Shown in pieces: positions 22,001 through 44,453 of a DNA stretch of 64,000 bases. The notes below the pieces were generated by a model. That model searched no databases. It was given only the letters and a program-made list of their open reading frames with translations, and was not told the origin of the DNA. The position numbers were made by a program, and so were the translations under genes. This DNA is from a virus, in IMG/VR virus record IMGVR_UViG_3300033004_000001, positions 28,613 to 92,612 of that record. The stretch is one strand, 5' to 3'. Numbering within the stretch: position 1 is the stretch's first letter; each line of letters opens with the position of its first letter.

Positions 22001-22194
22001 TGAAAAGAGAGATATCTGAATCTGAGATTTATTCAGATAAACAGAAAGATGAATTACATAAACTAATAGATGACAAAGATGTTAAATCTCCAGAGGATAT
22101 TAATGATTTGATAAAAATAATTTGTGATAAATATGGATCTCCAAGAGTTAAAATTACTCCAGGAGCTAAGAATAGATTTTCAATTAATGATTAA
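10051..22194 (+). CDS. giant virion RNA polymerase (fused beta/beta'-like domains) with hydrophobic N-terminal region and zincin-like domain
   Basis: 4047 aa; catalytic DFDVD (TGKDFDVDK, nt ~19129-19143); DYAKRL, VKVG, LRRQ, GTQ, IDAHVD..KDP motifs of crAss vRNAP; HEAFH zincin motif at ~14878. Confidence 0.88.
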   Translation: MPNNKQQAQQEPTPSWALQRNRPTYNTVTGEFSPVSSLLDKDEHERIKKIPFTGGNAATYLGDAGESVYDKNLSRQNIDLKDEFRGQNQPAMAKLGAGLAKALITTGTTAADGIIGTAVGLGNMAVEQKGSAFWDNPFTNWMNDINNSAEKWFPSYYTEQEKNASFIGQLGYANFWGDKFLKNLGFVAGMVLDGVITGGASMEALGGKAIAAKLPEAIANAALKGSEALATASKAGDMIGLTSEIINNAKQLNRINKISQGVSSILSAQGMSRFMALDDANRFYTENYQKLQQQMQDGKIGLEDYNLKMASLKKASEGYGNADFLANVVVLGLSSGIQFKNLFTKGFTPSETIAKGIVGSVEAGYTYERPVIQHAAKIAKNILAESGMFQEQYAASVATSDFYQKKFDGKKQDKIDDIYHSIYKGLVDAYGSREGWNQGLLGSVIGLIGVPTISSKGLDWGGGIRGDIKEVREQNAANQEAARRLNEVLKSDDFKNNYQSLIRNLSLEDEKNEAAAKGDKFEVLNKQHDQFINDALQFIRAGRYEDFQNNIKFIRNSNAEEVKQLFKTKTNEDVTRELYGLKPKALEGHVFEKYTADEITDKLNENANKMLSNAKTIKDLYDAYSVKYPGISEDAKELLIYTASKLEDINERLNDINKESINKFGLDINNYIKLKKDGNIDLSSVAEGMEEYQKHYDQVIKEQELSGRFNPVDVENFERNFQDFPKLIITKADFIDLYRQNITAKGPEKVQETINKADEERKTVEGTAVIEPMPDDLVTYTNTDGETNVYKINQIDENDNVTLTPTDTEGVPTGEADIIVTKNDIKLYQKEGKGKEELSKTEPVNESETTTVPNKEFYPEHGRGLRDASVSISHSHWDGKLGKTVIRNEDFDKYISSPKNDITKDKVQFRIDTGTEDEYKSSLWRLHKKIKAKLDKGETFTEKEISDIVNSRRTTEDRDEYNSIVDTLPIKIDYITKDGEVFDKGLYYHDSNFIHQNKAGEWNIRIPREYKTPEAIKDYVQSEREKVRQNRKVLLTAILSGKDVILHNIKRISSIPNNTGKNRNIDEVLREIDPDINTNTIGLGIAIGKGKEKGIIWTGHGKDNLKGTGSPGHVFFQTNLTSDGEPETIKANISKLSQEHANILWDAIVTRSRKGSGGNQAILPNEDVQGLTVGNVINLLTAFGRGTDINHPDNVGKSHLKDKQLFIDNKLNLHYGDNIVDLHDVLKGTIDRNKARDKFVNWAVNNKNYNVAKEIPELGIELNEPMTRKFKLGSWVSDGTDTYSGSLIKNGFVQTDVAEFEKSGSLFHAPVTMVDLNESGLEIKPTQPIVNKAKRDAKLVDTQATKPSNKPKNTGTKKIEASEKLDIKPNDLEKIRSLPVGTDIYITIQGTAGEGSEVRKTEVPKLFVSVVDNKGKKGFQIQNPRARTYFDISTAEYMDDPNKILEVGDESVKQLSSLISQYSKEGFDVNIDTSKAIKKPIAKVESKVEEAYEEAKEKYGEVLTKLAEETPPTEEEPIDIKFTGDPLNDVETDPEGAPFKMVYDESRKYKPAEIEKEVKWFHDKLGKDIPIELREGLIDVAKVGGKKAFGQLTRDGITLSKIAEEGTVYHEAFHRVSLLYLDPIQREEIYKEARSKYPELSKSSTDRRVEENLAEKFKDYIQDKEKNPDHTLLGKIGEFFQNLWNLVKQIFTGPTRLTSLDIDKLFSSIQSGKFKSYKPLQENLDRLGFGTYELEYKDRQLDNVINFKMMKSLIRGLSSMIMEPVSYKLFKDEARTKYSSIDVKDSLSAINFGDLRKKIEKLRDDYDKHNNRNKQVIDIIEKGQLTPELSSQLKAEYGVDNTTRVATNAHLGLEKGLRLASLYQEVLDNYDTIFKDEIQNYIYNELGVKRIDNGDEDERVTNAETAAHDTEAYERSAKDSISNAIKFMLHGLHASGDKNPDTGLWEFVPFDEIWSRLSNDLHNKTTIEDMIKKLDSSNYFPYEQLAKKLKAGSELLRTQFYTSLRGHRYNFINAMFKEAAGRKKGELPNFSMYFTDADIENSAKNAVRLWGDVFAISDLVSEGAVNTKKLEKIIKDFDNIIEDYREATNTKALINTEDYKDRLVSILKDIHIDVDNKTIDNLLGDIIDSGKAGTEELALGQLIEDRLFNGLFSTNSTLYKYATGADVKSRVTLEPKTLFRNESIVTDLSRAFAKTNYENISDNISGADGGNKHVFSKNSLTTDVIHYLKTDDEYLDKLLSDVSSKYSHYLNQIKNNPRVRNRLKVGTFNALIKDNSSDSGRDYLDISPTEDFLYKLNATRFGTGNMILPTIAGRKTYYTLNGFDRIELKYQKLPSGELVIPDDIIDIFYKYAQGEANKIEKAWQTLKKYSKLDEKGNVIKGTTDFKNLVDNYHYVKEGKVNNIDKGQAYKYQHMFESFNEKGFDIKNEADVRDRIRKILQSDIDATIEYAKDNDIITSTTKDKKELLAPKLLDRDMVSELANKSYGGDIDAATRSILADYTVNTKISSIETMMMFMGDISFYFDKKTEDPAVDYAKRLAVLISTGTNYRETIPVDFENPTYGVITLTEQKLNSKYLDLITDKYREMLLKKYNKEQAEEILSKHLKAYEDIQPTDAMVLISPNMYKGESLRLGEWGDKEEAAFNILNSDKELSPEEEAIALGISEKPLKDVYFERVSYDIDNDNKLLIPTFDKMAKFTLNRRLVKGTYFEDLLDRMEAVGKYEGLEKVCEAKFTTAVKVGNRQSTEYFKNPNTNEQSVTDLTNVPIRQQSFKFLRRQVNTDPHEEQKVLYGTQAKKVTLLNISNDNDYNLGGKSTKGLDIKRNITKSLTTLSDKETNRLLDKLGADLKTGKMDSDLFYNTLLADAKTAGMSYPVQEALRRHIPIDLLPEKKWILQRFSAMANKHGIDVHFPGQQLILMSGYGLGLKSIPDETNNLRFLFDEKGKLSGSEVKLPVHVFKDVIPNYENMSWEQKVEWLKKNPNMLEGIVSYIPNQGQNHNMVVKVKEFLPEQMADVIIFPNELTTLTGKDFDVDKGFFARYNYKTNKDGKVSKVPFMTDDNSTPDQRYDKLLNEEFYNNRYIFTKEFYRDLQEARDNLYGSLDYKNKLLGDDKVKLETLFDLRKELSKRFDEASENEKAFYHKQLLTLDSRIDDVLYYNDLIKENDGLLKDYKSVIEEALVKNNILPSRDEFKKQHAEGKLDYFKQNTKQAIQNYYLDNVKSVLLNDNHFLSTSAPLGAVTGRLKKLEEKVTKAEEAGKKRSRDFTGPVAQANLKYQFGSGGQGKAVFSLSNSHHAMTQYADVSFRKDIGVGVKNDDGTYKNSLHEQYGNVERDGERVLISDWGSALIDAHVDIEKDPFIIKLNVVKPTYNVTSLLIRTGVGEKTFEFLSQPILKDFSKASINDDSEITTEQDKPIAVVRNKWNDLYEKSLKSEFKDVQESRREDVKIRTELAEYKPLDEDLLKLLQTPVRDSRWYFKQIKILDLFNTLDKGPAKELNRLVMASRVDTKKYGNNMTEIKMYLDAVRDLHKENIFTNLDKLLPYDSDTNTAKDVEDGTFNSAYLRNGPLLVSKLMSDRTITATPTFNSIIDRLVTLTKSKYARNKEGLLNHMADEVSAAYMSRFFTDKNLLNLNSKKVGSIMDRVTKFLETVNTNPNYKDKLKDNILIQSLIKGRDSMDGMTFFGIPTIKSNDNFTKDDLMFAWQDLLQSDDVTLRNFGKELFVYSFYTSGLKRGLFSIFHYVPPALLDELDINYVDPETNEKKSTILSYSDYTDGLLAQDVMSNTIYEGIDKEVFKNNWHNPKYVPQLNPIDVQNIIPRKSGDPAVVTIYGRYTIPKLRIGNNIYDQPIFKPYINYIVDEKTSHLMEYIGYHDIDKTPVYKVVGKMGYYNKGRVIKEYGLEESTLERNRIKEIPDETMLPFIEKAKMYESFIYIPPENRDIAENKRSEEEVENNDAKDKVTPTTGEGTTVETVKLKMITPDKEKEDLKREISESEIYSDKQKDELHKLIDDKDVKSPEDINDLIKIICDKYGSPRVKITPGAKNRFSIND

Positions 22195-24220: not shown

Positions 24221-27200
24221 ATGATTAATTGTCCGAATAAGAATACAGATGCATGGAGGTCATTAAACTCTTTAGTTCCAGATTTATCTAATCATATCTG
24301 GCATAAATTAGAGGGACAAATCTCTGATAATGGACATCCTATGGAGGATGTAGATAGATTTAATAAGTTATTAGAAGATAATGATAATGATTATAAACAA
24401 ACTTATTTACAATTTCTTGGAGTAGAAGATGCCAAAATAGATTATCAATTTAGATCTGTTAATAATATAATAAAGAATATTATTAAGATTGATAATTGGT
24501 CTAAACAAATTAAGAATCAAAATCAATTATTTGATAAGATACAGAAGGATCTTGGTATACCTAAAGAACAGATTGAACTTATTAAACAATCTGAAGGAAA
24601 GGATATTAATGAAAAGTTATTAGATTTCATTAGTAAATATAGTTATACTATTGAAGTTAATACTGCTACAGATAATAAAAAATCTTCAGATGAATTTATC
24701 TTTAATGGAGATAACTATGGTTATGAAATAGTTGGTGATGATTATGGCACAGGAGCAGAAGAAACAGTTCCCACAAGAAATGGAATAGAGATTTCTCAGC
24801 AAGAATTTGATAAAGCTAAAGCAGAATATAGAAGAGATACCAATACTCCTTCTCAATACTATTCAAATCTAACAGTTCCAGGAGGTACTAACTATACAGA
24901 AAATGAAATACGTACACCTGATATTACACCCAGTATTAAAGGACATGCTCAGTTTAGTACAGATCAAGGTATAGGTTGGTTTAGAAGCGATGATAAAAAG
25001 AGAGATTTAACTGAAGAACAGATTAAAGAAGAATGGCCTTTAATTGAAGGGAGAAGAGTTTATATAGGTAAAAAATATAAGGATAGTAAAACTCGTCGTA
25101 TATTAGAAATACAATCTGATTTATTTCAGAAAGGTAGAGATGAAGAGGATTTAACTGAATATAAATATACTCGTTCCGATGAAGGAGAAATTAATTTTGG
25201 AGATGAAGATATTTATAGAGCAGAAAGAATGTTTTATGCTGGAAATGAAGAATATGAGAAAGGATTATCAACAAGATTTAGAGAAAAAGATGTAAAGAAA
25301 AATCAATTCTTACAGCTTCTAAACAAAGATAACAATTGGGTTACATTCTTTATTAAATCTATTATTCAAGATAGTGCTAAGAAAGGATATGAGAAAGTAT
25401 TATTTCCTAAAGGTGAAACTGCTGCTAAGGTTGAAGGACATGAAACTTTAGCAAATGAACTTACTAAAATAAATAATGAATTAGAACAACTTCAAAAAAT
25501 AGATTTATCCGAAAAAGGTATAGTAGAAGGAACTGGAATTAAGAATAAAATTGCTAACTTAGAACAACGTAAATCTGAACTTAAATCTCAAGGTATAGAA
25601 AAACTTAAACCTATTGAAGCATTTTATGAAATTAAAGTACAGAATATATTAAAGAAGATAGACCCTAATATTAAAACTATTACAGATGAATTTGGTAATC
25701 AATGGTTAGAGTACCAATTAACAGATAAAGATTTAAATAATATAGAATTTCAGAAAGCAAATGGAGAATCTTATATATTTAATAAGAAATTAAACGATCA
25801 AATTAAACAGATATTACAAAAATTATATCCAGAAGTTAAATTAAATTATACAACTAATTTAGAAGGAATTAGAGGACAATATCAAGCTGGAAAAATATTA
25901 ATAAACTCATTATCACAAAATACAGATACTCTTCCTCATGAATATGCTCATCATTATATTAAGATGTTTATTAAAAGTGATATTGTTAAACAAGGAATTA
26001 AATTATTTGGATCAGAGGAGAAACTAGTTCAATCTATTGGAGAACAATCCATTAGAGCATTAAAATGGTATCAGAAATTATATGATTGGTTAAAAGGATT
26101 ATTTAGTTCTAAACAATCATTATTAAATAACTTAACAAATAGTTTCTTAGAATATAATAGATTATTAGATAAATCTGCTATTTCTACCGAAAGAATGTAT
26201 CAAAAAATTACTAAAGAAGATGTTACTGGAGATACTAAGAAACCATTAAATGATGTATTATCATTACCAGAAGTACCTCTTGAATCTAAATTTACTAAGT
26301 TAGATAAGATGTCTGAAATTAAAGAGAAAGCTATAAAACGATTAGAATTTAAGAGAGAACTAAATATAAAAAGAAAAAAACCTAGTTTTGATCCTGAAGC
26401 AGAAAAAGTATTTATTGAAGAAATAAAAAAATTAGAAGCATCTCAAGCTATGCTTAGATTTACTAGAAGAGCATCAAAAACTGTAGATGGTATATATTCT
26501 CAATGGTTAAAGATAAAAGAAAAAATTAAATTAATAGATGAAGGTAAGCTAAATATAGATAAAAGTGTAGTATTAAATCCTCAAATATTATCTCAATGGG
26601 CTGACTATTTATCAGCTTTTGATTCACTTGAAGAATTTAGAAATGCCCTTGTAGCAGATGGGTCATTATATAAGGATGAAGTTCTAAAGAAGATGTTAAA
26701 TGATACTATTGAAAAAAAGAATGCAATTGAGAAATTATACGATGTAGAGGGATATGATATGATGGCTGGGTTTCTTGAACCTCATAATGATCAGATACGT
26801 AAAGATTTTGAAATTCTAGCTAGTAAGAGTTATAAGAAATTAACACCTGAACAGAAATCTCAAATATCAGAAGAAAGATACATTCAAGTTCAAAAAGAAC
26901 TTAAAGAAACCAAACTTAATGAACAAACTTTTTTAATGTTACGTAATGAATTACAGAAAGCTACAAGTGATATAGGATTAGCTAGACGTTGGGTTGGAAA
27001 TATTTTGAATTCTTCTAATCCAGTTATTGCAGCAGTTGGACAGATAATATCCTTTGCTGAAATGAAAGTTCATGGTAGGAAGATAGAAATTAGGAATAGA
27101 ATGATGCCTATTTTAGAGAAACTAGAAAAGTTAAAAAAAGGATATAAAGATATTAGAGATATATATGATCAAATTTTAGAACCTAAAACTAATCGTTTAA

Positions 27201-29413
27201 TAAGTAAATGGGGTAGTGAATTCTTAGATGCTTATGATAAAGTTAAAAATGATGCTAAGCAAAATGATAAGTTAACTGATGATGAAAGAGGTAATATCAT
27301 TAAGAAATGGCTTGGAGAAAATACTGATTTTGATGGACTTCAATTTCGTAAAGATAAATGGAGTTATATAGATTCTCTTGAAAAGAATGGAGAAATATCT
27401 TCTGAAGATGTAAGAGCTTTAGAAGTAAATGAAGCTGATAAATATTGGTCTAAGTCTCCTCATGCATTATTTGAAGATGGAAGAATATCAGAAAATACAG
27501 CTAATTTAATAGCAGGATGGCAATCTGAGCATTCATGGGATTATAGAACACTTAAAGATGAGTGGCTTAAGAAAAATCCTCAATGGGATAAATTTCAAGC
27601 TTTACGTAAATCTAATCCGAACGATCCCATAGTTGAATTTTATGACTTTATCAAAGAATATGAAGATGAATTTAATTCATATCTTCCAGCTAGTATGAGA
27701 TTAAGAAATGGACAATTACCAGGAGTAATGAAAACTTCTGATGAAAGATTAAAAGCTGGAGAATCATTTCTTAATATAACTAAAGCTAAATTACAAAGAA
27801 CTTTTGATTTCGTAGCTACTGATGATATAACTAGAGGTAATGAACCGTTAATCGATGAAAGAGGAAATAAAAGATATTTTATTCCAATGTATTATACTAG
27901 CAAGTTGGATGCTAAAGATCAATCATTTGATTTAGCTACAGCATACTTTAAATGGTTTTCAACAGCCGCTGATTATGAATCTAAAAATTCTATCTATCCA
28001 GAAATGGAAATGATTAGACATTTTATAGAGACTAGAAAACCAGATATTCAAACTAAAGGAAAAAAAGAATTAAAATTTTATAATAGATTATCAGAACAGT
28101 TTAATGATTGGTTTGAAATGGTATTCTATGGAGTTAAACAAAAAGATGAAGGCAAATTTAAAATATTTGGATTAACTATTGATACAGCTAAATTTTTAGA
28201 TTTTATTAGTAAATCTACTGCTTATAATATTTTATCATTAAACTTCAGAGCTGGTATATCAAATCCTTTAATTGGAGAAGTTTTAAATACTGGTGAGGCA
28301 ATAGCTAAGCAACACATGGATCTTAAATCTTTTCATAAAGCTCATGCTTATTATTTTAAAAATCTTCCTGGAATGTTAGGAGATGTTGGTAAAAGAAAGC
28401 CATCAAATATAGTTAATTTGTTAAGTGAAAAGTTCAAAGTAGATCCTGATCAGATGAACAATAGATTCAGAGATGACACAAGATTGAAAGAATTAGCAAA
28501 GAGTAGTAGTTTGTTTTTTATGATGACATCTGGAGATACTTATTTAAATAATACTTTATTTCTAGGAATGTTAGATCATAAGATAGCTTATGATAAAGAT
28601 GGGAATAAATTAGGATCTATGTTAGATCAATATTCTAAAGATAAACAAGGTAATTTAGTTCTTAATAAAGAAGTTAGTTTAGATAAATCTAATTGGAATG
28701 AAACTGATCAACTTAAATTTGGTAATAAAGTACAATATGTAATCGAAGGAGTTCAAGGTAACTATACACAACTTGGTAAGACTGCTGTACAACGATTTGC
28801 GTTAGGTAGAATGGCTATAATGTTTAGAAAGTTTGTAGTTCCTGGGATAGAGAAAAGATATGATAAAAAACAATTTACTCAAAGATTAGGTGACTATACT
28901 GAAGGATATTATAGAACTACTGGAAGATTTTTAGCTAATTTATATAAAGAATTTAAAACATATCAATTTCATGTATTAGGATTAGAATGGGATAAATTAG
29001 ATCATATAGAAAAAGCCAATATTGTTAGAACTATATCAGAATTAGGATTTATGCTTACAGCTTTAGTTATAGGTGGAGCAATGACTAGAAAAGATAGAGA
29101 TGATAGTGATGATTCATGGTTCTATAATTTCTCTGCATATCAATTATTGAGACTAAAGACAGAATTATTATTCTATACTAATCCTGCAGAAGCAATGCAG
29201 ATATTAAGATCTCCAATGGCTACTATGTCTTTATTTGAAACTACTATGAAGATATTTCACCAAATGTTACATCCTACAGATAGATATACTGCTGGAGTTC
29301 CTGAATGGAAAGGACATCTTAAAATGGAAAAATTACTATATGATTTACTTCCAGTATTTAGAGCTAATTATCAACTTAGAGATATTAAAACTCAAGTTAG
29401 TTTTATGAAATAA
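24221..29413 (+). CDS. large polyvalent virion cargo protein with EIQSD module and HEYAH zincin motif
   Basis: 1730 aa; N-terminal CPN....W..L; PGG.NY.E...GH..F...GWFR...ILEIQSD; LPHEYAHHY; hydrophobic helical C-terminus. Confidence 0.65.
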   Translation: MINCPNKNTDAWRSLNSLVPDLSNHIWHKLEGQISDNGHPMEDVDRFNKLLEDNDNDYKQTYLQFLGVEDAKIDYQFRSVNNIIKNIIKIDNWSKQIKNQNQLFDKIQKDLGIPKEQIELIKQSEGKDINEKLLDFISKYSYTIEVNTATDNKKSSDEFIFNGDNYGYEIVGDDYGTGAEETVPTRNGIEISQQEFDKAKAEYRRDTNTPSQYYSNLTVPGGTNYTENEIRTPDITPSIKGHAQFSTDQGIGWFRSDDKKRDLTEEQIKEEWPLIEGRRVYIGKKYKDSKTRRILEIQSDLFQKGRDEEDLTEYKYTRSDEGEINFGDEDIYRAERMFYAGNEEYEKGLSTRFREKDVKKNQFLQLLNKDNNWVTFFIKSIIQDSAKKGYEKVLFPKGETAAKVEGHETLANELTKINNELEQLQKIDLSEKGIVEGTGIKNKIANLEQRKSELKSQGIEKLKPIEAFYEIKVQNILKKIDPNIKTITDEFGNQWLEYQLTDKDLNNIEFQKANGESYIFNKKLNDQIKQILQKLYPEVKLNYTTNLEGIRGQYQAGKILINSLSQNTDTLPHEYAHHYIKMFIKSDIVKQGIKLFGSEEKLVQSIGEQSIRALKWYQKLYDWLKGLFSSKQSLLNNLTNSFLEYNRLLDKSAISTERMYQKITKEDVTGDTKKPLNDVLSLPEVPLESKFTKLDKMSEIKEKAIKRLEFKRELNIKRKKPSFDPEAEKVFIEEIKKLEASQAMLRFTRRASKTVDGIYSQWLKIKEKIKLIDEGKLNIDKSVVLNPQILSQWADYLSAFDSLEEFRNALVADGSLYKDEVLKKMLNDTIEKKNAIEKLYDVEGYDMMAGFLEPHNDQIRKDFEILASKSYKKLTPEQKSQISEERYIQVQKELKETKLNEQTFLMLRNELQKATSDIGLARRWVGNILNSSNPVIAAVGQIISFAEMKVHGRKIEIRNRMMPILEKLEKLKKGYKDIRDIYDQILEPKTNRLISKWGSEFLDAYDKVKNDAKQNDKLTDDERGNIIKKWLGENTDFDGLQFRKDKWSYIDSLEKNGEISSEDVRALEVNEADKYWSKSPHALFEDGRISENTANLIAGWQSEHSWDYRTLKDEWLKKNPQWDKFQALRKSNPNDPIVEFYDFIKEYEDEFNSYLPASMRLRNGQLPGVMKTSDERLKAGESFLNITKAKLQRTFDFVATDDITRGNEPLIDERGNKRYFIPMYYTSKLDAKDQSFDLATAYFKWFSTAADYESKNSIYPEMEMIRHFIETRKPDIQTKGKKELKFYNRLSEQFNDWFEMVFYGVKQKDEGKFKIFGLTIDTAKFLDFISKSTAYNILSLNFRAGISNPLIGEVLNTGEAIAKQHMDLKSFHKAHAYYFKNLPGMLGDVGKRKPSNIVNLLSEKFKVDPDQMNNRFRDDTRLKELAKSSSLFFMMTSGDTYLNNTLFLGMLDHKIAYDKDGNKLGSMLDQYSKDKQGNLVLNKEVSLDKSNWNETDQLKFGNKVQYVIEGVQGNYTQLGKTAVQRFALGRMAIMFRKFVVPGIEKRYDKKQFTQRLGDYTEGYYRTTGRFLANLYKEFKTYQFHVLGLEWDKLDHIEKANIVRTISELGFMLTALVIGGAMTRKDRDDSDDSWFYNFSAYQLLRLKTELLFYTNPAEAMQILRSPMATMSLFETTMKIFHQMLHPTDRYTAGVPEWKGHLKMEKLLYDLLPVFRANYQLRDIKTQVSFMK

Positions 29414-35947: not shown

Positions 35948-36595
35948 TTATTTATTATTTAATACAGTTCTTACATGTTCTAGGAACTTACTACAATCAT
36001 TAGGGATTATATCCTGCTCATTTTCCACAAAAATTGGTGGACATTTAGCAGAATCTTTACCGTCAGTATTTAACTTAAGGTTATAATATTTCTTTTCATC
36101 TTTGATCCGTACATCAGTATACATTACAATGGTGAATTCTTTTTCAATCATTCCCTCCCATTCTTTACCTTTTACTTTTATACGTTTCTCAATAGCTCCT
36201 TCTTCTGTTTGAATCCATTCATAATGAGCAGTCAAGAATATATCTTTTGGATATTTCTTTATGATAAACATTAATTTACCAATCTCTTCATTATACATGT
36301 TCCAGATATCAAATCCTTTCTTAGTTTCACGAGCTGTCTTTAAGACTGAGTCCATGTATGAACTAAAACTATCAAAGACCACTTCAGTTATTTTGTCGTT
36401 TTTGGCATATTCGATTAATTTGTTGTAAGCGTCTTGCCATGAGTTTGGACAATAATAATGTTCAAACTTATTTATGAATGGTAATGGTTTACCTTCCATA
36501 TTAATAAATCCACAAGTTTTAGGATTCATATTCACAAATGAATATGTCTTTCCTCTACCTGGAGATCCAACAATCATAAACTGATATGGTATCAT
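35948..36595 (-). CDS. AAA_24/Sak4-like recombination ATPase
   Basis: IVGSPGRGKT, INMEGKPLPF, VFDSFS, EKEFTIV, SAKCPP. Confidence 0.82.
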   Translation of the reverse strand: MIPYQFMIVGSPGRGKTYSFVNMNPKTCGFINMEGKPLPFINKFEHYYCPNSWQDAYNKLIEYAKNDKITEVVFDSFSSYMDSVLKTARETKKGFDIWNMYNEEIGKLMFIIKKYPKDIFLTAHYEWIQTEEGAIEKRIKVKGKEWEGMIEKEFTIVMYTDVRIKDEKKYYNLKLNTDGKDSAKCPPIFVENEQDIIPNDCSKFLEHVRTVLNNK

Positions 36596-36611
36596 TAGTC
36601 TTTATTTAAAA

Positions 36612-36687
36612 AGACTGTTAGTAGACCATGAACGAATCACCGTTTACTTCTACTGTATTTTGATGGGTTATAATTAACTAACAGTCT
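36612..36687 (-). promoter_or_regulatory. intergenic long-stem RNA element
   Basis: AGACTGTTAGT...ACTAACAGTCT 11-bp inverted repeat enclosing ~54 nt. Confidence 0.6.
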
Positions 36688-36701
36688 ATATTGTTAATTA
36701 A

Positions 36702-37331
36702 TTATCTGCATAACTTTAAACATTTCTTTACTTTCGAGCAGAATGATTCCTTCTTTGATGGTTTAATGAATATATCATTTACAATTACTTCATAAGTATC
36801 ATCATCTATATCCACAAGATTCTTTCCATGTTTATGGAAAATATCAAATGTATCGAATCCGATTTTCACAAAGTTATTAAATATAGATACTTTTTCATCA
36901 ATATCTATAAATTCACCATCAAAAAGAACTTCCTTCATATTTCTCCTAGCGGATTTATAATAAGGACAGTTTTTACATTCATCGCAAGGAAGATTATCAT
37001 CTTTCTTATAAAGTTTCTTAACTAAGTCTTTTATCTTGTAATAGTCATATATTAAACTGTATGACTTACCACAAAATGAACACCAGTTTTTTCTTATCTT
37101 AATATCATTTTTTGTAAATACTAAGAAGTCTCCACATCTAATCGTATTAGCTGCAAAGAAGTTTACTCCTTTATATTTATTGATAACATCTAGTAGAGCA
37201 CTGAGATAATCACCTTCACAATCATCCACTTCTACAACGAATTCTTTGGATGAATTTTTCTCTTGTTGTTCTTCCTTTTGTTGAGATTTCTGCTTGAAAT
37301 AAATACATCCTTTTATATTGTTTGATTTCAT
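36702..37331 (-). CDS. Cys-rich hypothetical protein
   Basis: CSFC and CDECKNC clusters. Confidence 0.55.
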   Translation of the reverse strand: MKSNNIKGCIYFKQKSQQKEEQQEKNSSKEFVVEVDDCEGDYLSALLDVINKYKGVNFFAANTIRCGDFLVFTKNDIKIRKNWCSFCGKSYSLIYDYYKIKDLVKKLYKKDDNLPCDECKNCPYYKSARRNMKEVLFDGEFIDIDEKVSIFNNFVKIGFDTFDIFHKHGKNLVDIDDDTYEVIVNDIFIKPSKKESFCSKVKKCLKLCR

Positions 37332-37341
37332 ATTTTTAGTT

Positions 37342-38286
37342 TTAACTTATTATTGGATTATATTCTTCAATTGAATTAAACTTTAAATTATTTATAAATG
37401 ATAGTATTTTAGGTTCTCCCTCTCGACATTTAAGCCAATGCATGTAGATCATGTTGTCAACGGGCCAGTTGTTGACACCATAGCTGCGTATACCAAGTTT
37501 TTCAGGAGCATGTAATACTATTATATAATCAGATGCAAAAAACATAGCATCTGATCCAGCTAAGTCTCTTCTTTGAGGAAAGTGTAAAGATGGATTAGTT
37601 ATTCTACCCATCTCTTCTATCTCTCTATTTAATTGACTTAATTGGATAATAGTAGTTTTGCCTATTTTCTTCTCTTCTATAAATAATCTCTGGAGGTTAA
37701 CTAAAGTGCTTCTTTCGGATTCTACTCCTTCACTTTTAGTTAATAATACATGGTCGAAGTCTATGATTAACCATTTGTCCTTACCATACATCTCTCTGAA
37801 CTTGTCAATTGTATTCTTAATTTCAGATACTGTACCTGGTGTATCTACATAATAGATAGGATAATTTCTGATTCTTTTACTTTCTTCTTCGACCTTTTTA
37901 AAATCTAAATCAGAGAGTGGCTCTGTTACAGTATATAGTTCCGATGTTGTTTTTTTAAGCTTATATGAAAGCTTACGTCCGATCTGTTTAAAACTTAACA
38001 TTTCTAGACTGAAACTTAGTATTATAAAATTTATATCTGGATTTAAATCAAACAAATCTGATTCTAATGAATTTATAAATGCCGATTTCCCTGCTCCGGA
38101 TATTCCAGCGATTGTATAAATTGTATTGACCTCTATACCACCCATTGCAGTATAGTTAAACTTTTTCCATTTTGTTTTTAATGATTTGATAGCTCCTTTA
38201 CGTCTGTTATCTATGTATTCAATGGCTTCAGTTGTAGCATAAGATATATGTTTAAATGTAAGACTATTATTCGAGACTATTGCCAT
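37342..38286 (-). CDS. DnaB-like (SF4) replicative helicase, motor domain only
   Basis: IAGISGAGKS, SLEM, DFDH, LSQLNRE, LKCREG. Confidence 0.85.
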   Translation of the reverse strand: MAIVSNNSLTFKHISYATTEAIEYIDNRRKGAIKSLKTKWKKFNYTAMGGIEVNTIYTIAGISGAGKSAFINSLESDLFDLNPDINFIILSFSLEMLSFKQIGRKLSYKLKKTTSELYTVTEPLSDLDFKKVEEESKRIRNYPIYYVDTPGTVSEIKNTIDKFREMYGKDKWLIIDFDHVLLTKSEGVESERSTLVNLQRLFIEEKKIGKTTIIQLSQLNREIEEMGRITNPSLHFPQRRDLAGSDAMFFASDYIIVLHAPEKLGIRSYGVNNWPVDNMIYMHWLKCREGEPKILSFINNLKFNSIEEYNPIIS

Positions 38287-38854
38287 ATCCTAAGTCCTCC
38301 GTATTTGATAGAGATTCTAGACCTTCATCCTTGATTCTCTGTTCGTAACACTTCCATTCTTCTGAGGATAGCCATTTTGGCAATCTTTTCATATAGCATA
38401 GTTTACCTTCTTTTCTTCGAATTGCTAGTTCAAATTGTAAACATTGTAATATGTTTAAATGTAAAGAATATTTACTACCTGTTATTTTGTTATAAATACG
38501 TCTACATCTATTTAAATCAGTTCTTAAATAATCTTTTGTCCCATCAGGTCTTATAACACTTGTCGGATATGTCTGTACAAATTCATCAAAGAAATCACCT
38601 TGTGCAAGTATTCTTACAAAAGATGGTTTAATTATGAATTTATTTAGATCATACTGATCCTCAAAATTATAATTGTCAATCAGTCCAGCTTTCACTAATC
38701 CAAGAATTAAACTTTTCAATTCTTCACTTGAATACAAATCAAGATAAGAACCTAATAATTCATAACTCTTTTCATAGATTAATTGAGCAATCAAAAATTG
38801 ATCTACAGTTATTCTATTTTTTAACAAATAATTTACATCTACTTGTAATAACAT
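38267..38854 (-). CDS. putative replication initiator/helicase loader
   Basis: wHTH-like N-terminus, FDEF..TYP, YMKRLPKWL..EEW; directly upstream of helicase. Confidence 0.55.
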   Translation of the reverse strand: MLLQVDVNYLLKNRITVDQFLIAQLIYEKSYELLGSYLDLYSSEELKSLILGLVKAGLIDNYNFEDQYDLNKFIIKPSFVRILAQGDFFDEFVQTYPTSVIRPDGTKDYLRTDLNRCRRIYNKITGSKYSLHLNILQCLQFELAIRRKEGKLCYMKRLPKWLSSEEWKCYEQRIKDEGLESLSNTEDLGYGNSLE

Positions 38855-38918
38855 GTTAGTTATGTATTAATGCTCAAATTGTAGATGTATTTGTAATATT
38901 TGGTTTTATGAGCGGTTA

Positions 38919-39545
38919 TTAAACTTCTAGTAATCTATCAATTCCAATAGCAAATCCTATTCCATTATCGTATTTTCCTCCTCCACAGATTTGTTTCTGA
39001 GCTCCAAGAGATTCTACTTCTATTTCAAATCCTTTTCCTTCTTCGTAGTAGTCTAATCCTCTTGTTACACCTGTATTAATTTTATAATTAGATGTATATA
39101 TTTTAACGGAATTCTCTGCTAATTGTTTGATAAAATTACTATAATTTTTACTAGGATTTAATATTTCTACACCTAGTTGAGTGAATTGTCTGTATCTACC
39201 TTTTTGAGGCTTTTCACCTCTAAAACACTCTCCAATATAAAATAACATTACATCTTTTTCATATTTGAATTGTGTAGTAGCTAACTTTTGACAGACAGCT
39301 GTGTATTCAGGAGCTAAACAGACATCTCTTTCTCCTCTGTCTTTAAAGTTAAACATTAGATTTTTATTATCTCCAATTTTATCTTTAAATGTCTCCTGAT
39401 ATTGGATTATTGGTATAAAAATTTCTTTAAAACCTTTCTTGATAAGGTACTTGGAAATTTTATTTAACAATTCTCTCTTTTTCATAGCTTTATTATTAAA
39501 TAATATTCTTGTTCCCTTATATACAAAATCTTGTTTTATTTCCAT
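38919..39545 (-). CDS. minimal histidyl-tRNA synthetase catalytic-core paralog (no insertion or anticodon-binding domain)
   Basis: KGT, GF.EI..P (motif 1), LAPEYT, FRGEKPQKGRYRQFTQLGVE (motif 2), RGLDYY (HisA), GGGKYD (HisB), GFAIGIDRL (motif 3); 208 aa. Confidence 0.85.
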   Translation of the reverse strand: MEIKQDFVYKGTRILFNNKAMKKRELLNKISKYLIKKGFKEIFIPIIQYQETFKDKIGDNKNLMFNFKDRGERDVCLAPEYTAVCQKLATTQFKYEKDVMLFYIGECFRGEKPQKGRYRQFTQLGVEILNPSKNYSNFIKQLAENSVKIYTSNYKINTGVTRGLDYYEEGKGFEIEVESLGAQKQICGGGKYDNGIGFAIGIDRLLEV

Positions 39546-39546
39546 T

Positions 39547-40776
39547 TTATATAAATTTGTATTTATTAATGTTTTTATATCCTATTAAAAACTTTTCTAT
39601 AGAAAGTTTCTTTCTTCCTTCCATTTGAATAGATTTAATATTTATATATCCATCTATACAAGCAACTTTTAGATAAGTTTTGTTATCTGATATAAACGTA
39701 CCAATAGTTTCATTAGTATTGGATTGTTGCATTTCTATATCATATAATTTAACTATTTTATTATTTAGTATAGTCCATGCTCCAGGATATGAGTTTAATC
39801 CTCTAATAAAATTATATATATTAGTTACTGTATTATTCCAATTAATTTTGGTGTTAGAGGAAGTTAATTTTGGTGCTAATTTATTAGATGAATTTTCATA
39901 TTTATGATTAGGAGGATTTTCTATATAATCTAATGATTTAATTAATAAACTACTTCCTAAATTTCCTAATGTTTTTAATAAATCATTATAAGTAGATGAA
40001 AAAGGTAGACAAGTTTTTTCTTGTAATATTATTTGTCCTTTATCAATTTCATTATTAATAAAGAAAGTTGTAACTCCAGTTATAGTTTCACCATTTATTA
40101 TACTCCAATTTATAGGAGCTGCTCCACGATAATCTGGAAGTAAAGAAGGATGTAAATTAATGGTTCCATATTTAGGAATACTCCATAATTTCTCTGGTAA
40201 TTTTTTAAAAGATACTACTATTTGTAAATCTGGATTAAATTCTTTAATATGATTTATAAAATCTATATCTTCTAAATTATTTGGTTGTAATATAGGAATA
40301 TTTAGATTTTTAGAATATTGTTTAATTTTAGATTTTCCAGGACTAGTAATAATACAAATAATATTATACTTTAAGTCTAACAATTTTTTTAATGATATTA
40401 TTGAGAAATCATCCGTTCCTATAAATATAATATTAAATTTATTAGCTTCCATTTTATTTTTCTTATTTAGTAATAATTTTGTTATTCTTTCTGGTTGAAT
40501 TTTTATTTTAGTACCTAATTGAAATTTACACATTAAATAGATTAAATACATTTCAAATTCTTTTGATCTCGCAATATTTACTCTTGCTGCTCCTATATAT
40601 CTACCTATTTCTAATGCATATTTTTCTTTAATTTGTTTTAAATTTATATCTCTAACTATATCTACTAATAGAGATAATTCTGAATCTGTAAGTTCATATT
40701 CTTTTGGTTCATCTGATAGTACCATTCCTATGTACTCCATTATGACGTCTATGTTAAGATGTTTTGATATGATCAT
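39547..40776 (-). CDS. fmt: methionyl-tRNA formyltransferase with ~110-aa unknown N-terminal extension
   Basis: IIFIGTDDFS, LQP..L, INLHPSLLPDYRGAAPINW, TGVTTF, IDKG.II, APKL, IRGL..YPGAW, C-terminal Q.EGRK; Fmt proper starts at MEANKF (~40452); start could be 40776 or 40812. Confidence 0.85.
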   Translation of the reverse strand: MIISKHLNIDVIMEYIGMVLSDEPKEYELTDSELSLLVDIVRDINLKQIKEKYALEIGRYIGAARVNIARSKEFEMYLIYLMCKFQLGTKIKIQPERITKLLLNKKNKMEANKFNIIFIGTDDFSIISLKKLLDLKYNIICIITSPGKSKIKQYSKNLNIPILQPNNLEDIDFINHIKEFNPDLQIVVSFKKLPEKLWSIPKYGTINLHPSLLPDYRGAAPINWSIINGETITGVTTFFINNEIDKGQIILQEKTCLPFSSTYNDLLKTLGNLGSSLLIKSLDYIENPPNHKYENSSNKLAPKLTSSNTKINWNNTVTNIYNFIRGLNSYPGAWTILNNKIVKLYDIEMQQSNTNETIGTFISDNKTYLKVACIDGYINIKSIQMEGRKKLSIEKFLIGYKNINKYKFI

Positions 40777-40918
40777 GTTTTGGAATATAATGTTCTTTTT
40801 TACATTTTTCACTACAATAATGTAATATTTTTTTCTTAGTTTTTACAAATATTGGAGTATTTAATATTACTTTACAGCATGTCGGATTATCACATACTAT
40901 ACAATTAAGTTTCTTCAT
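40754..40918 (-). CDS. 54-aa TRASH/MYM-like Zn-finger protein (not in ORF track)
   Basis: Manual translation MKKLNCIVCDNPTCCKVILNTPIFVKTKKKILHYCSEKCKKEHYIPKHDHIKTS*; ATG overlaps PolB stop (TAATG). Confidence 0.65.
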   Translation of the reverse strand: MKKLNCIVCDNPTCCKVILNTPIFVKTKKKILHYCSEKCKKEHYIPKHDHIKTS

Positions 40919-42786
40919 TAAAATAATGTTAGTTGTTTCTCTTCTACTATGTCAATGATTTTATTACATTCATTAATATAATATTGATAATTTATATTAT
41001 AATCTTTAATTGGTTTTTGTATAAATTTATTAAAGATAGTTATTAACCATCCTTTTTCTATATTTGATTCTCGTCCATCTTTATGAACTTTCATTAATGT
41101 TGAACCTAAATTAGATATATAATATCTTATATTTTTTTGTTGTTTGTCAATTTGTGGTTGTAAATCTTTGTTTGTATATCTAATTTCAGATGTCCATCCT
41201 TCTGTAGCTCTAAATCTCTTACAAAAGTCAAATATATTATTATGATTAATTATTGTATCTTTAATAGGAATTCCTTTTAAAAAATAATCTGATAGTGCAA
41301 TTGGTACTATTTTCATAGACATATCTTTATGATATACTCTTTTTCCATTCATCATTGGAATTATTTCAAATGCACCTTTATATTTTGGTTTACCTTCAAT
41401 TGTTCTTGCTATATAATTATTAACATCTCGGATAACCATTAGTTCATAGAAACTACTCTCTAATACTAGTCCTGTTAATCCTTGCCACCAATCCATTATA
41501 CCTTGTACTTTTTCTATATCTTTCTTTTTATATCTTAATGTTAATCCATCTGTGTTAGCTTGTATCATTGTACAATCTATATAGTCTACTAACTCTTCGG
41601 CTAACATTGATAGTAATAATTGTCCATTAATTGTAATTTGCATAGTAAACGTTGGATCATAGAAAAATGAATATATATCATTAGATTTACCAAATACAGC
41701 AGTTAATGCTTGTTTTAATCCTCCATTTTTAGCTGATCCTTTAATAGTAAGTTTTCTCTCTTGATATAGTTTGTTATAAGTTGTTATAAAAGATTCACCT
41801 AAATGTTTTGGTTTAAATTTATTAACTATAGCAATATTTGGATAAAATGATGATACATCAATATCATGAATAACTTCATCTTCTTTTGGTTTATATATTC
41901 CAGGCTTTATACAGCCATGTAATCCACCTAATCCAAAATCATATTTAAATCCTTTATATATAACTGATTCTTCTAGAGATTTTCTAGTTTCAATTATATT
42001 TTTATTCCTATACTTTCCTAATAACTCATTAAATTCATTACTATAAAATTTGATATATGGAAGTATGCAATCATTAAGATTAATAGAACTTCTATAAGTT
42101 CTCATTCTCTTTAATTCCTTTATAGGAATATTCATTTCTTCACTAAGTAACTTAGCAAAGATTTCACTTCCAATTTTTGGTTCATTAGCATTTAACAGAT
42201 CTATCCCATACTCTTTACTAAGTTGCTTTCGCATTTCTACTTCATCTATATTTAATTTATAGAATTCATAAGTAGCAATAACATCATTTAAATTATAATC
42301 TAATATTCGTTGAACTTCATCATTTGTTACCTCATGATTAAATTTAAATGGAGTATCGTCTATGTTATCAAGATTAATAGCAATCTCTACTGCCTTTAAC
42401 GATGTTCTTTTAGATTTATTATCAAAATGATTAATTCTATATAAATCTAGTTGTGGAATTTTAACTTTCCAATATGGAATTTCACTAAATTCTGTATCTA
42501 AAACTATCTTAGTATGATGATAAATAGCTTCTGTTAAGTTGTCTGAATCTCTTTTAAGATGATCTTTATGTTCTAAAATGTAATGGATGATAGGATAGTC
42601 AAACTTTAAGTTATTGAATCCTATCAATCCACTGACTTCCTCCTCTAGGAAGTGTATGTATTCATCAAAATCATTTCTGCTCTTATGAATGACGAATTGT
42701 TTGGTAATTTGGGTATCTCTGTTTAAGAAAGTGCAGGAATGGAAATTAGAAAAACATTCTATATCATATATCCAAACACTTTTCAT
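40918..42786 (-). CDS. family B DNA polymerase with 3'-5' exonuclease
   Basis: YDIE (ExoI), FNNLKFD (ExoII), YNLND (ExoIII), DVSSFYPN (A), KQALTAVFG (B), NTDG (C). Confidence 0.9.
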   Translation of the reverse strand: MKSVWIYDIECFSNFHSCTFLNRDTQITKQFVIHKSRNDFDEYIHFLEEEVSGLIGFNNLKFDYPIIHYILEHKDHLKRDSDNLTEAIYHHTKIVLDTEFSEIPYWKVKIPQLDLYRINHFDNKSKRTSLKAVEIAINLDNIDDTPFKFNHEVTNDEVQRILDYNLNDVIATYEFYKLNIDEVEMRKQLSKEYGIDLLNANEPKIGSEIFAKLLSEEMNIPIKELKRMRTYRSSINLNDCILPYIKFYSNEFNELLGKYRNKNIIETRKSLEESVIYKGFKYDFGLGGLHGCIKPGIYKPKEDEVIHDIDVSSFYPNIAIVNKFKPKHLGESFITTYNKLYQERKLTIKGSAKNGGLKQALTAVFGKSNDIYSFFYDPTFTMQITINGQLLLSMLAEELVDYIDCTMIQANTDGLTLRYKKKDIEKVQGIMDWWQGLTGLVLESSFYELMVIRDVNNYIARTIEGKPKYKGAFEIIPMMNGKRVYHKDMSMKIVPIALSDYFLKGIPIKDTIINHNNIFDFCKRFRATEGWTSEIRYTNKDLQPQIDKQQKNIRYYISNLGSTLMKVHKDGRESNIEKGWLITIFNKFIQKPIKDYNINYQYYINECNKIIDIVEEKQLTLF

Positions 42787-42805
42787 TTGTTTAACTTTAC
42801 TTAAC

Positions 42806-43021
42806 TTATTGTACGTTTAATATCCTCTTAAGTTCTACTGAAGAAAATATAAATTTTGAGTATATGAATGTATCAAATTTAATATCTCTACATTTTCCAC
42901 ATACTATGTATATATCTATTCCTCTTGGATAGTATTTTCCATAACATGTTGTTCTAGTACAGAATTCTATATAAACAATATCATAGATATATTTATCCTT
43001 TATCTGAATGATTAAGTTCAT
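42806..43021 (-). CDS. small Cys-containing hypothetical protein
   Basis: ORF fills gap in codirectional block. Confidence 0.4.
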   Translation of the reverse strand: MNLIIQIKDKYIYDIVYIEFCTRTTCYGKYYPRGIDIYIVCGKCRDIKFDTFIYSKFIFSSVELKRILNVQ

Positions 43022-44453
43022 ATTTTTCTCTTTGTAGTTTAATCTGCTCTTTTGTTCTATGTCTCTTATGAACTACTATCTTTTTAACTTTAGTTTTATT
43101 TCTAAGACCAAAGTCTTTGTCTCCCCATTTCTTTTTCTTTTCTTCTTTATTAGTAGTCCAAGGTGGATGTAATTCAGGGTAATTTCTTTTGTAAGTTACT
43201 ATTTCTTCAATTTTCTTACTACCATCCTTCATCTTAGTTATTAGAACTCGTTTCTTGGGCTCTAAGGAGCTCACCATTGAACGATCTCCATTAAGTTGAT
43301 GTATAGTATCACTTTTCATATATCGTTCAGCTACGGCTTTATAATAAGGCTTTACTGTTTTTAAGACAACCTTATCTTTATACATTTTATTGTATGCTTT
43401 AGTTATAGCTTTTCCTTTACTGGAAGCTTTAACTACAAACTTCTTTTCTTCATATATTTCTTTTCCAACTGCACTTGGAATATCTTTAATAAGAGTTACA
43501 TTCCAGAAAGTTGACTTTTCTTGTATCCTACCTGGATGAGATCTTTTAGATTTATATCCATTTGAAGTTAAAATTCTTTTAGTTGAACTCTTTGGTGGAA
43601 TATATTTTTCTCTAGGAGTATAAAATTGATTTCCTAAAGCTGGAGTTAATGAATTTCCAGCAACTGGTCTCATTCTTCTTTTACCTTCTTTTTTAGATAT
43701 ATATTCCCATTTATCTTTACCAGTATTTGGTGATCCAAGATAATTTGGGCCATTAGCTTCCCACCAAGGAACTCTAGCTATTTGTTTACCATCTTTAGTA
43801 GCTATATATACTAATCTTTTTGGAGATTTTTCTGGTTGTCTAATAAAATGTTTAAGCCTATCCTCTCTTCCTTTGATAGTCCATATTGGTTTCCATCCTT
43901 CTTTTATAGAAGTAAATCGTTTAGTATATTTATTAATATTATCTACTATAGTTAAAAATTTAGGAATAATTGGTTTTAATATATTTATTGATTTCCATAT
44001 TATTTTTCCTTTTTTCTTTCCTTTTATAAATATATGATTTATAAATGTATTTTTTATATATAAATTAGATAATATTTTTAAATTAGGTCTTATTAAATCA
44101 AAATCTAATTTATACTTTGATTTTTCAGTTTTACTTTCATATACTGGCATATTGTCAATTTTTTCAGCTTTCTTAATCCGAATATATCCATTTTCTAGAT
44201 AATTCTCCAGCCATTTTTGTACATGTTTATGATCATTATTATTTCCTACTATGTATTCTTTCCAAAATGGTTCTATTTCAAAATCAGTTGGTGCATAGAA
44301 AGGTCTAGTTTTACCTTCTTTAGTTCTAGTTATTGTAAGTTCTGCGAATTCATATTTAAATCCTTCAACAAACTCTTCTTTAGTAGGAATTCTATATTGA
44401 TAACACCAATCTCCATAGTCTTTATATTTACACCATATCGCTATTGGATTCAT
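42993..44453 (-). CDS. highly basic hypothetical protein
   Basis: 486 aa, K/R-rich; N-terminal YRIPTKEEFVEGFKYE. Confidence 0.6.
   Translation of the reverse strand: MNPIAIWCKYKDYGDWCYQYRIPTKEEFVEGFKYEFAELTITRTKEGKTRPFYAPTDFEIEPFWKEYIVGNNNDHKHVQKWLENYLENGYIRIKKAEKIDNMPVYESKTEKSKYKLDFDLIRPNLKILSNLYIKNTFINHIFIKGKKKGKIIWKSINILKPIIPKFLTIVDNINKYTKRFTSIKEGWKPIWTIKGREDRLKHFIRQPEKSPKRLVYIATKDGKQIARVPWWEANGPNYLGSPNTGKDKWEYISKKEGKRRMRPVAGNSLTPALGNQFYTPREKYIPPKSSTKRILTSNGYKSKRSHPGRIQEKSTFWNVTLIKDIPSAVGKEIYEEKKFVVKASSKGKAITKAYNKMYKDKVVLKTVKPYYKAVAERYMKSDTIHQLNGDRSMVSSLEPKKRVLITKMKDGSKKIEEIVTYKRNYPELHPPWTTNKEEKKKKWGDKDFGLRNKTKVKKIVVHKRHRTKEQIKLQREKYELNHSDKG

Follow-up and report, generated by a model that had tools for sequence, protein, structure and literature searches.

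A phage histidyl-tRNA synthetase reduced to its catalytic core: a candidate anticodon-blind tRNA-His ligase

Can a histidyl-tRNA synthetase (HisRS) that has been stripped to its catalytic core still charge tRNA and, if so, how would it recognize its substrate? The question is raised by a 208-residue open reading frame (ORF; 38919–39545, minus strand, ATG start, TAA stop) in a 64,000-nucleotide stretch of virus DNA, referred to here as the window, which comprises bases 28613–92612 of the 92,612-bp IMG/VR record IMGVR_UViG_3300033004_000001. A 127-bp direct repeat is present at the termini of the record, and the phage genome is therefore complete; its G+C content is ~28%. The initial annotation, made from the sequence alone, described the ORF as carrying a stand-alone HisRS catalytic core, an assignment that is borne out by the reading frame and by matches in Pfam and NCBIfam. 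The protein, hereafter mini-HisRS, is a HisRS with a new, minimal architecture that forms its own phage clade, and it is probably an active tRNA-His ligase that does not read the anticodon.

The Pfam family PF13393 (tRNA-synt_His) matches mini-HisRS at 5.9e-22, and the NCBIfam hisS model (TIGR00442) matches it at 1.1e-45 in two stretches that cover model positions 3–132 and 237–313 of 406. The intervening positions 133–236, corresponding to the insertion domain, are replaced by ~25 residues, and positions 314–406, corresponding to the anticodon-binding domain, are absent; the chain ends two residues past motif 3. When aligned with Escherichia coli HisRS, mini-HisRS covers residues 30–132 and 249–290 of that enzyme. 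The loss of both domains, as first described, is thus confirmed by the unmatched model positions, and every one of the signatures listed at that time (the class II motifs, the HisA loop, the HisB loop, PExT and QxxxE) is present in the sequence. A separate anticodon-binding domain, which the annotation had suggested looking for, is not encoded elsewhere, since PF03129 (the HGTP anticodon-binding domain) has no match anywhere in the 92.6-kb genome. The PHROGs collection has no family for the protein. The elements of the gene, all on the minus strand, are as follows.

38919..39545, minus strand: mini-HisRS gene, 208 aa, catalytic core only (ORF, Pfam/NCBIfam, AlphaFold2, Foldseek)
39402..39434, minus strand: motif 1, residues 38–48 (GFKEIFIPIIQ), predicted dimer interface; P45 is kept in 66/69 family members
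39300..39317, minus strand: histidine-binding strand LAPEYT, residues 77–82; E80 and T82 correspond to E. coli E83 and T85 (conservation)
39159..39242, minus strand: motif 2 and its loop, residues 102–129, with R109 for ATP, E111, K112, Q114, R117 and R119 for the acceptor end, and Q123 and E127 for histidine; the motif 2 sequence, which includes R109, Q123 and E127, is FRGEKPQKGRYRQFTQLGVE
39081..39158, minus strand: short helix-loop, residues 130–155, in place of the ~100-residue insertion domain (gap in the TIGR00442 match)
39045..39062, minus strand: HisA loop RGLDYY, residues 162–167; R162 corresponds to E. coli R259 (sequence, conservation)
38967..38984, minus strand: HisB loop GGGKYD, residues 188–193; G189 in 66/69, G190 in 65/69 and Y192 in 64/69
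38928..38963, minus strand: motif 3, residues 195–206, GIGFAIGIDRLL; the stretch GIGFAIGIDR carries R204, which corresponds to E. coli R311 and is kept in 66/69
38919–38921, minus strand: stop codon

Conservation was counted over 69 family members, down to 31% identity. The residues that would bind ATP and histidine, as judged from their counterparts in cellular HisRS, are near-invariant: the motif 2 arginine R109 (67/69), F121 (E. coli F125, 67/69), R162 (61/69), the motif 3 arginine R204, E80 (67/69), T82 (64/69), Q123 (E. coli Q127, 67/69), E127 (E. coli E131, 67/69) and Y167 (E. coli Y264, 63/69). The motif 1 proline is kept to the same degree as R204. Positions K191 and D193 of the HisB loop vary across the family, and only the pattern G-G-x-Y is kept.

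By the same comparison, residues expected to serve only the tRNA step are also conserved. In the structure of Thermus thermophilus HisRS with tRNA-His, the essential Glu114 contacts A76, Arg115 and Arg122 form a clamp on the acceptor stem to which Arg7 contributes, and the partner subunit meets G-1 with its DRG turn (PMC4357726). The equivalents in mini-HisRS are E111 (Glu in 60/69 and Asp in 7), K/R112 (56/69), R119 (63/69), R13 (54/69) and D69 of the DRG turn (58/69). R117, an acceptor-end contact, is found in 62/69 and the motif-2 loop glutamine Q114 in 63/69. This glutamine covaries with the G-1:C73 pair of tRNA-His and is replaced by glycine in an alphaproteobacterial clade whose tRNA-His lacks G-1 (PMC3937112). 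Mini- and microhelices are substrates of HisRS, for which the anticodon contributes only weakly to recognition (PMC4357726).

The AlphaFold2 model, predicted with the family alignment, has a predicted local distance difference test score (pLDDT) of 92.6 and a predicted TM-score (pTM) of 0.88, and places a helix at residues 136–148 within the segment that substitutes for the insertion domain. The top matches in a Foldseek search are E. coli HisRS (1KMM, 1KMN and 2EL9; E ~1e-17, query TM-score (TMq) 0.85), and T. thermophilus HisRS with tRNA (4RDX) is matched with a TMq of 0.84; catalytic domains of PylRS and HisZ are lower in the ranking. Mini-HisRS is predicted to form a homodimer of the class II type, with an interface composed of the N-terminal strand, motif 1 (residues 40–49) and residues 67–70. 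The two-copy prediction scored 0.88 against 0.37 for the best control, with 100% of contacts shared by three runs and a partner pLDDT of 88; because HisRS dimers have already been solved, this score may reflect likeness only and is no proof of binding. Among proteins of solved structure, 20 of 30 pairs and one of 23 single chains reached the mark applied to such predictions.

The minimal form is widespread. A word-indexed protein search returned 2147 proteins at E <= 0.001, of which the best 120 are 204–279 aa long (all but one 204–226 aa) and 60–100% identical to mini-HisRS. An exhaustive search of 50%-identity representatives gave 42 matches at E <= 1e-30; ~40–60 representatives of 195–260 aa align end to end, down to ~33% identity, and full-length HisRS proteins (~420 aa) rank below these mini forms. 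The relatives share a conserved N terminus and stop at the same point, and nearly all are encoded on phage contigs of 30–675 kb. In IMG/VR, 65 loci encode mini-HisRS on contigs of ~4 to 676 kb, and further carriers of the gene are two uncultured huge phages (635 and 642 kb) and, among cultured phages, the 469-kb Sinorhizobium phage Phosso. In a scan of prokaryotes with one genome per species (185,579 species), the mini form accounts for five of 80 kept loci; the other kept matches extend over ~830–930 nt for the same query residues, as in full-length HisRS genes. All five mini loci lie on contigs of metagenome-assembled genomes together with tRNA arrays and PHROG-family genes and, therefore, are probably phage DNA binned with bacteria.

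An unrooted tree of the shared core, containing mini and full-length HisRS and no HisZ, has one branch that splits 39 mini proteins from 68 full-length HisRS (Shimodaira–Hasegawa-like approximate likelihood ratio test support 100, length 0.97), and none of 500 label shuffles was as clustered as the observed split. This sequence-based separation fits a single, old origin of mini-HisRS within phages. Of the phylogenetic comparison with HisS and HisZ that the initial annotation called for, the HisS part places mini-HisRS in a separate clade, while the HisZ part is a comparison of hidden Markov model (HMM) scores and residues. Selection was estimated against an 84%-identical copy (locus L003), which gave a dN of 0.098, a dS of 1.24 and a ratio of 0.08; the ratio rests on this pair, as an indel shifts the codon register of the copy in L004, which was left out. 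With this ratio and the near-invariant catalytic residues, the HisRS core is intact and under selection, and the pseudogene-like decay of homologs that had been named as grounds for rejecting an active enzyme is clearly contradicted.

In one metagenomic mini-HisRS (P0121, 564 aa), the PEYT sequence is split between Y81 and T82 by an intein that contains a LAGLIDADG endonuclease domain. Inteins typically occupy conserved, functionally important sites. A description of the mini-HisRS family was not found in the open-access literature, and an account in a subscription journal is possible; a survey of huge phages treats phage tRNA synthetases only in general terms (PMC7162821).

The genes around mini-HisRS in the relatives point to tRNA. 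In 37 of the 65 phage loci, tRNA genes occur within 10 kb; they number 350, of which 348 share the strand of mini-HisRS. A tRNA-His(GTG) is present in 17 loci, and all five tRNA-His genes examined base by base encode both G-1 and C73. No protein-coding neighbor is conserved across the 65 loci, which favors a stand-alone enzyme. A special closeness of tRNA-His to mini-HisRS was also considered; tRNA-His is the nearest tRNA in only three of the 37 loci and the enrichment is weak, so that only the association with tRNA arrays in general holds.

The three bases ahead of G+1 are ATG in six of six tRNA-His 5' flanks (L007, L026, L039, L044, L063 and L148). G-1 is therefore encoded and the two preceding bases are fixed as well, which perhaps reflects a processing signal or common descent. 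A 239-aa TrpRS-like protein (L061:9089–9808, plus strand, and five other IMG/VR loci) is encoded in the same tRNA arrays as mini-HisRS. It covers positions 7–238 of 328 of the trpS model, with the C-terminal end missing, and is absent from the window phage genome. Since this protein resembles another truncated synthetase, synthetase shortening may be a wider habit of these phages. Other genes near mini-HisRS encode an RNA ligase (L008:3611–4264), a protein with a Tad4 (Thoeris inhibitor) domain (L032:9117–10004) and a PurZ-like adenylosuccinate synthetase family protein (L069:52–1095).

In the Sinorhizobium phage Phosso (PV764938.1, L148:3745–4686), a gene for a G-1:C73 tRNA-His precedes the annotated mini-HisRS gene by 276 nt. 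The Rhizobiales, to which its host belongs, are part of a clade in which A73 is found in tRNA-His, G-1 is not templated and HisRS has lost the matching glutamine (PMC3937112); the Phosso mini-HisRS retains it (RPQAGRYREF). The joint presence of a tRNA and an enzyme of the ancestral type is what would be expected if the enzyme charges G-1:C73 tRNA-His. The annotated start of the Phosso gene at 4096 seems too far downstream, and starting instead from the ATG at 4045, which follows AAGGAGG, recovers the conserved RGTRV N terminus.

A second link to histidine is found upstream of some of the genes. A short leader ORF with at least three His codons lies directly upstream of mini-HisRS in six of 63 loci, compared to 17 of 587 control genes taken from the same loci (Fisher p 0.018); examples of the leader peptides are MKMKTTYKLHHHTEKSGS and MKTLNINTHFHFHF... 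The leader regions (L005:9859–9980; L023; L031:9840–9966; L037:9868–9969; L044 and L046:9822–9979) group by sequence into four lineages (L005/L023, L031, L037 and L044/L046). A strong hairpin and U-run come after the leader in all four, shortly ahead of the start codon, and an anti-terminator alternative is predicted in three of the four, in which a segment at the leader stop codon pairs with the 5' arm of the terminator. By analogy with pheM-pheST and hisL, where a leader of cognate codons precedes a terminator and anti-terminator, an arrangement that in E. coli adjusts PheRS to the level of charged tRNA-Phe, these regions look like candidate histidine attenuators that would tie expression to the supply of charged tRNA-His. 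They differ from the known leaders in having only 3–4 His codons, and occur in the six related loci named, not in the window. Promoter motifs of the Bacteroidota type (TAnnTTTG) precede the His leaders.

In the window phage, the context is different. ARAGORN detected no tRNA genes in the window or in the whole 92.6-kb genome, so the tRNA-His gene for which the initial annotation proposed a search is not there, and Rfam has no match in window positions 36000–44000. The gene upstream of mini-HisRS encodes another enzyme that acts on the acceptor end of tRNA.

39547..40812, minus strand: Fmt (methionyl-tRNA formyltransferase), 421 aa, upstream gene (TIGR00460, Pfam Formyl_trans_N and Formyl_trans_C)

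Residues 126–415 of this protein match TIGR00460 at 215 bits (cut-off 201.5), and its stop codon ends one nucleotide ahead of the mini-HisRS ATG (junction TAA-A-ATG). Mini-HisRS is thus translationally coupled to a bona fide Fmt in the window, and because of this coupling the two acceptor-end enzymes are co-expressed. The pair sits between the genes for a DNA polymerase (phrog_1252) and a DnaB-like helicase, with a Sak4-like protein as a further replication gene nearby; virion proteins are also encoded in the phage genome. Among the loci examined, Fmt adjoins mini-HisRS in the window phage only. The phage Fmt has a 125-aa N-terminal extension with no Pfam match, and a 54-aa Cys-rich ORF (40754–40918) overlaps its start. 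Elsewhere in the window, two giant ORFs at 10051–22194 (plus strand, 4047 aa) and 24221–29413 (plus strand, 1730 aa) have no PHROG match.

From the sequence, fold, conservation and gene contexts we infer adenylation, tRNA charging, a dimeric state and a benefit to the phage along the following lines. A mini-HisRS homodimer would bind histidine and ATP through the residues used by cellular HisRS and make histidyl-adenylate (His-AMP), and the histidine would then be passed to A76 of tRNA-His. The tRNA would be recognized only at its acceptor end, where G-1:C73 would be read by the conserved loop of motif 2 together with the DRG turn contributed by the other subunit; since G-1:C73 is unique to tRNA-His, no reading of the anticodon would be needed. 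For the window phage, devoid of tRNA genes, the host tRNA-His would serve as substrate, and co-expression with the phage Fmt in the replication block suggests that both enzymes keep translation supplied during infection. In many relatives, the substrate would probably include the phage's own G-1:C73 tRNA-His as well. Anticodon-independent charging of tRNA-His was among the activities first proposed for this ORF and is the best backed of them, by the acceptor-end residues, the tRNA-His loci, the His leaders and the Fmt neighbor. A more ambitious version, in which mini-HisRS is a fully functional 24-kDa enzyme and the smallest natural synthetase, with specificity for G-1:C73 only, could equally well prove right or wrong. 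In this version, mini-HisRS and the phage tRNA-His would, in phages such as Phosso, make up a self-contained pair alongside a host system based on A73 without G-1, and in some phages an attenuator of histidine codons would turn the gene on as charged tRNA-His becomes scarce.

Several observations weigh against an active tRNA-His ligase. The hisS score of mini-HisRS is 156.4 bits, below the equivalog cut-off of 286.75, as is expected from its half length. A 320-residue catalytic-domain fragment of E. coli HisRS is reportedly far less efficient than the full enzyme. The main doubt concerns the insertion domain, which forms one jaw of the acceptor-stem clamp in HisRS (PMC4357726); its loss could badly weaken tRNA binding. 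The share of tRNA-His among nearby tRNAs rises only from 23 of 350 (6.6%) within 10 kb to seven of 56 (12.5%) within 500 bp. The strongest context evidence comes from the relatives, because the window phage has neither tRNAs nor a His leader. Such a leader would be just as fitting for a gene that raises histidine production.

The same adenylation chemistry could serve another acceptor, with histidine transferred from His-AMP onto proteins, small molecules or nucleic-acid bases in the manner of EpmA/PoxA (lysylation of elongation factor P), AsnA or the SerRS-like carrier-protein ligases. Truncated class II paralogs without an anticodon domain usually act in this way (PMC9437257), and both the intact adenylation residues and the absence of tRNA genes from the window phage are compatible with such a role. 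However, no partner gene is conserved in the 65 loci, neither a PP-binding carrier protein nor HisG is found in the phage genome, and the mini-HisRS gene is embedded in tRNA arrays in the relatives. Furthermore, the motif-2 residues that contact A76, G1 and G-1:C73 are kept as in true HisRS, and the motif-2 loop is unlike those of EpmA, HisZ and AsnA, which act on other substrates. We therefore consider an alternative acceptor unlikely, and the histidylation of protein, RNA or DNA that had initially been suggested is not supported by these data.

A catalytic role could also be dispensed with altogether, if mini-HisRS were a HisZ-like activator or sensor of the host ATP-phosphoribosyltransferase, or paired with host HisRS through motif 1 to alter its activity or specificity. 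HisZ (1Z7M, 3OD1) also has a HisRS-like core without an anticodon-binding domain and binds histidine; hisZ is the second-best match of mini-HisRS, the motif 1 interface is retained, and control by a His leader would fit a histidine-biosynthesis factor too. The score against the hisZ model (TIGR00443) is 94.2 bits, far below the cut-off of 271.65 and below the hisS score, and hisS scores above hisZ in all members scanned, if by a small difference in P0223 (76.5 versus 73.7). HisZ proteins are longer (280–430 residues, as are the model positions), retain the middle region that is absent from mini-HisRS, have HisG as partner and have lost adenylation (PMC9437257), whereas the mini-HisRS family keeps every ATP-binding and catalytic residue, and no HisG is encoded in the phage genome. 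The phages that carry the family infect a wide variety of hosts, which disfavors a fit to the HisRS of any one of them. A non-catalytic subunit is less probable still than transfer to another acceptor.

An enzyme that does not read the anticodon would be unaffected by damage to the anticodon loop, and mini-HisRS could accordingly be a counter-defence factor that recharges nicked or repaired tRNA-His, or that replaces a host HisRS that has been shut off. The RNA ligase gene near mini-HisRS in some loci (such as L008) would suit such a role. Nevertheless, charging a nicked tRNA without repair gains nothing, since a nicked tRNA cannot decode; no repair genes adjoin mini-HisRS in the window, and no defence system that targets tRNA-His was linked to it in this analysis. 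We regard this role as improbable, and nothing points to the anticodon-nicked tRNAs that had been put forward as substrates. That mini-HisRS is a decaying, functionless fragment of a captured hisS gene, as its half length and sub-cut-off score might suggest, is scarcely credible given the dN/dS of 0.08, thousands of homologs of the same length with conserved N terminus and end point, the confident compact fold of the AlphaFold2 model and the intein in the active-site loop of one member.

As a tRNA-His ligase, mini-HisRS can be compared with both natural and engineered enzymes. It resembles HisS (class IIa; 1KMM/1KMN/2EL9, 4RDX) in the catalytic fold, motifs 1–3, the HisA and HisB loops, the histidine and ATP ligands, the motif-2 loop Gln and Arg that face G-1:C73 and A76 and, by prediction, the type of dimer interface. 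It differs in the absence of the ~100-residue insertion domain and the ~95-residue C-terminal anticodon-binding domain, in its length (208 residues compared to ~420), in its hisS score below the cut-off and in belonging to a separate, phage-borne clade. Among engineered proteins, Ncat HisRS (residues 1–320) and the HisRS urzymes likewise consist of the core only and activate histidine; for the urzymes, fragments of E. coli HisRS of 119–145 residues were sufficient (PMC3060492). The urzyme HisRS-4 connects motifs 2 and 3 in a manner similar to mini-HisRS, and the mini-HisRS architecture matches the order argued for these constructs, in which the insertion domain was the last addition, after the HisA loop (PMC3060492). 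In contrast to these constructs, mini-HisRS is a natural protein that is conserved and under selection; the HisA and HisB loops, missing from the urzymes, are present in it, and the insertion domain, retained in Ncat HisRS, is lost.

If active, mini-HisRS would be a natural synthetase of half the usual size, in which a class II core and an acceptor-stem identity mark are enough for specific charging. Whether such a core suffices in living systems has until now been approached only through engineered molecules (urzymes, Ncat HisRS and minihelix substrates), and mini-HisRS would then offer a counterpart from nature to the HisRS urzymes and the 'operational RNA code' idea. A small enzyme specific for G-1:C73 only would be usable as a compact orthogonal charging part, for which Phosso offers a cultured test system. 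For the phages, it would mean that a stripped HisRS is widespread among genomes of 30–700 kb because the G-1 mark makes the anticodon domain dispensable, and that a compact module has been added to the phage takeover of translation.

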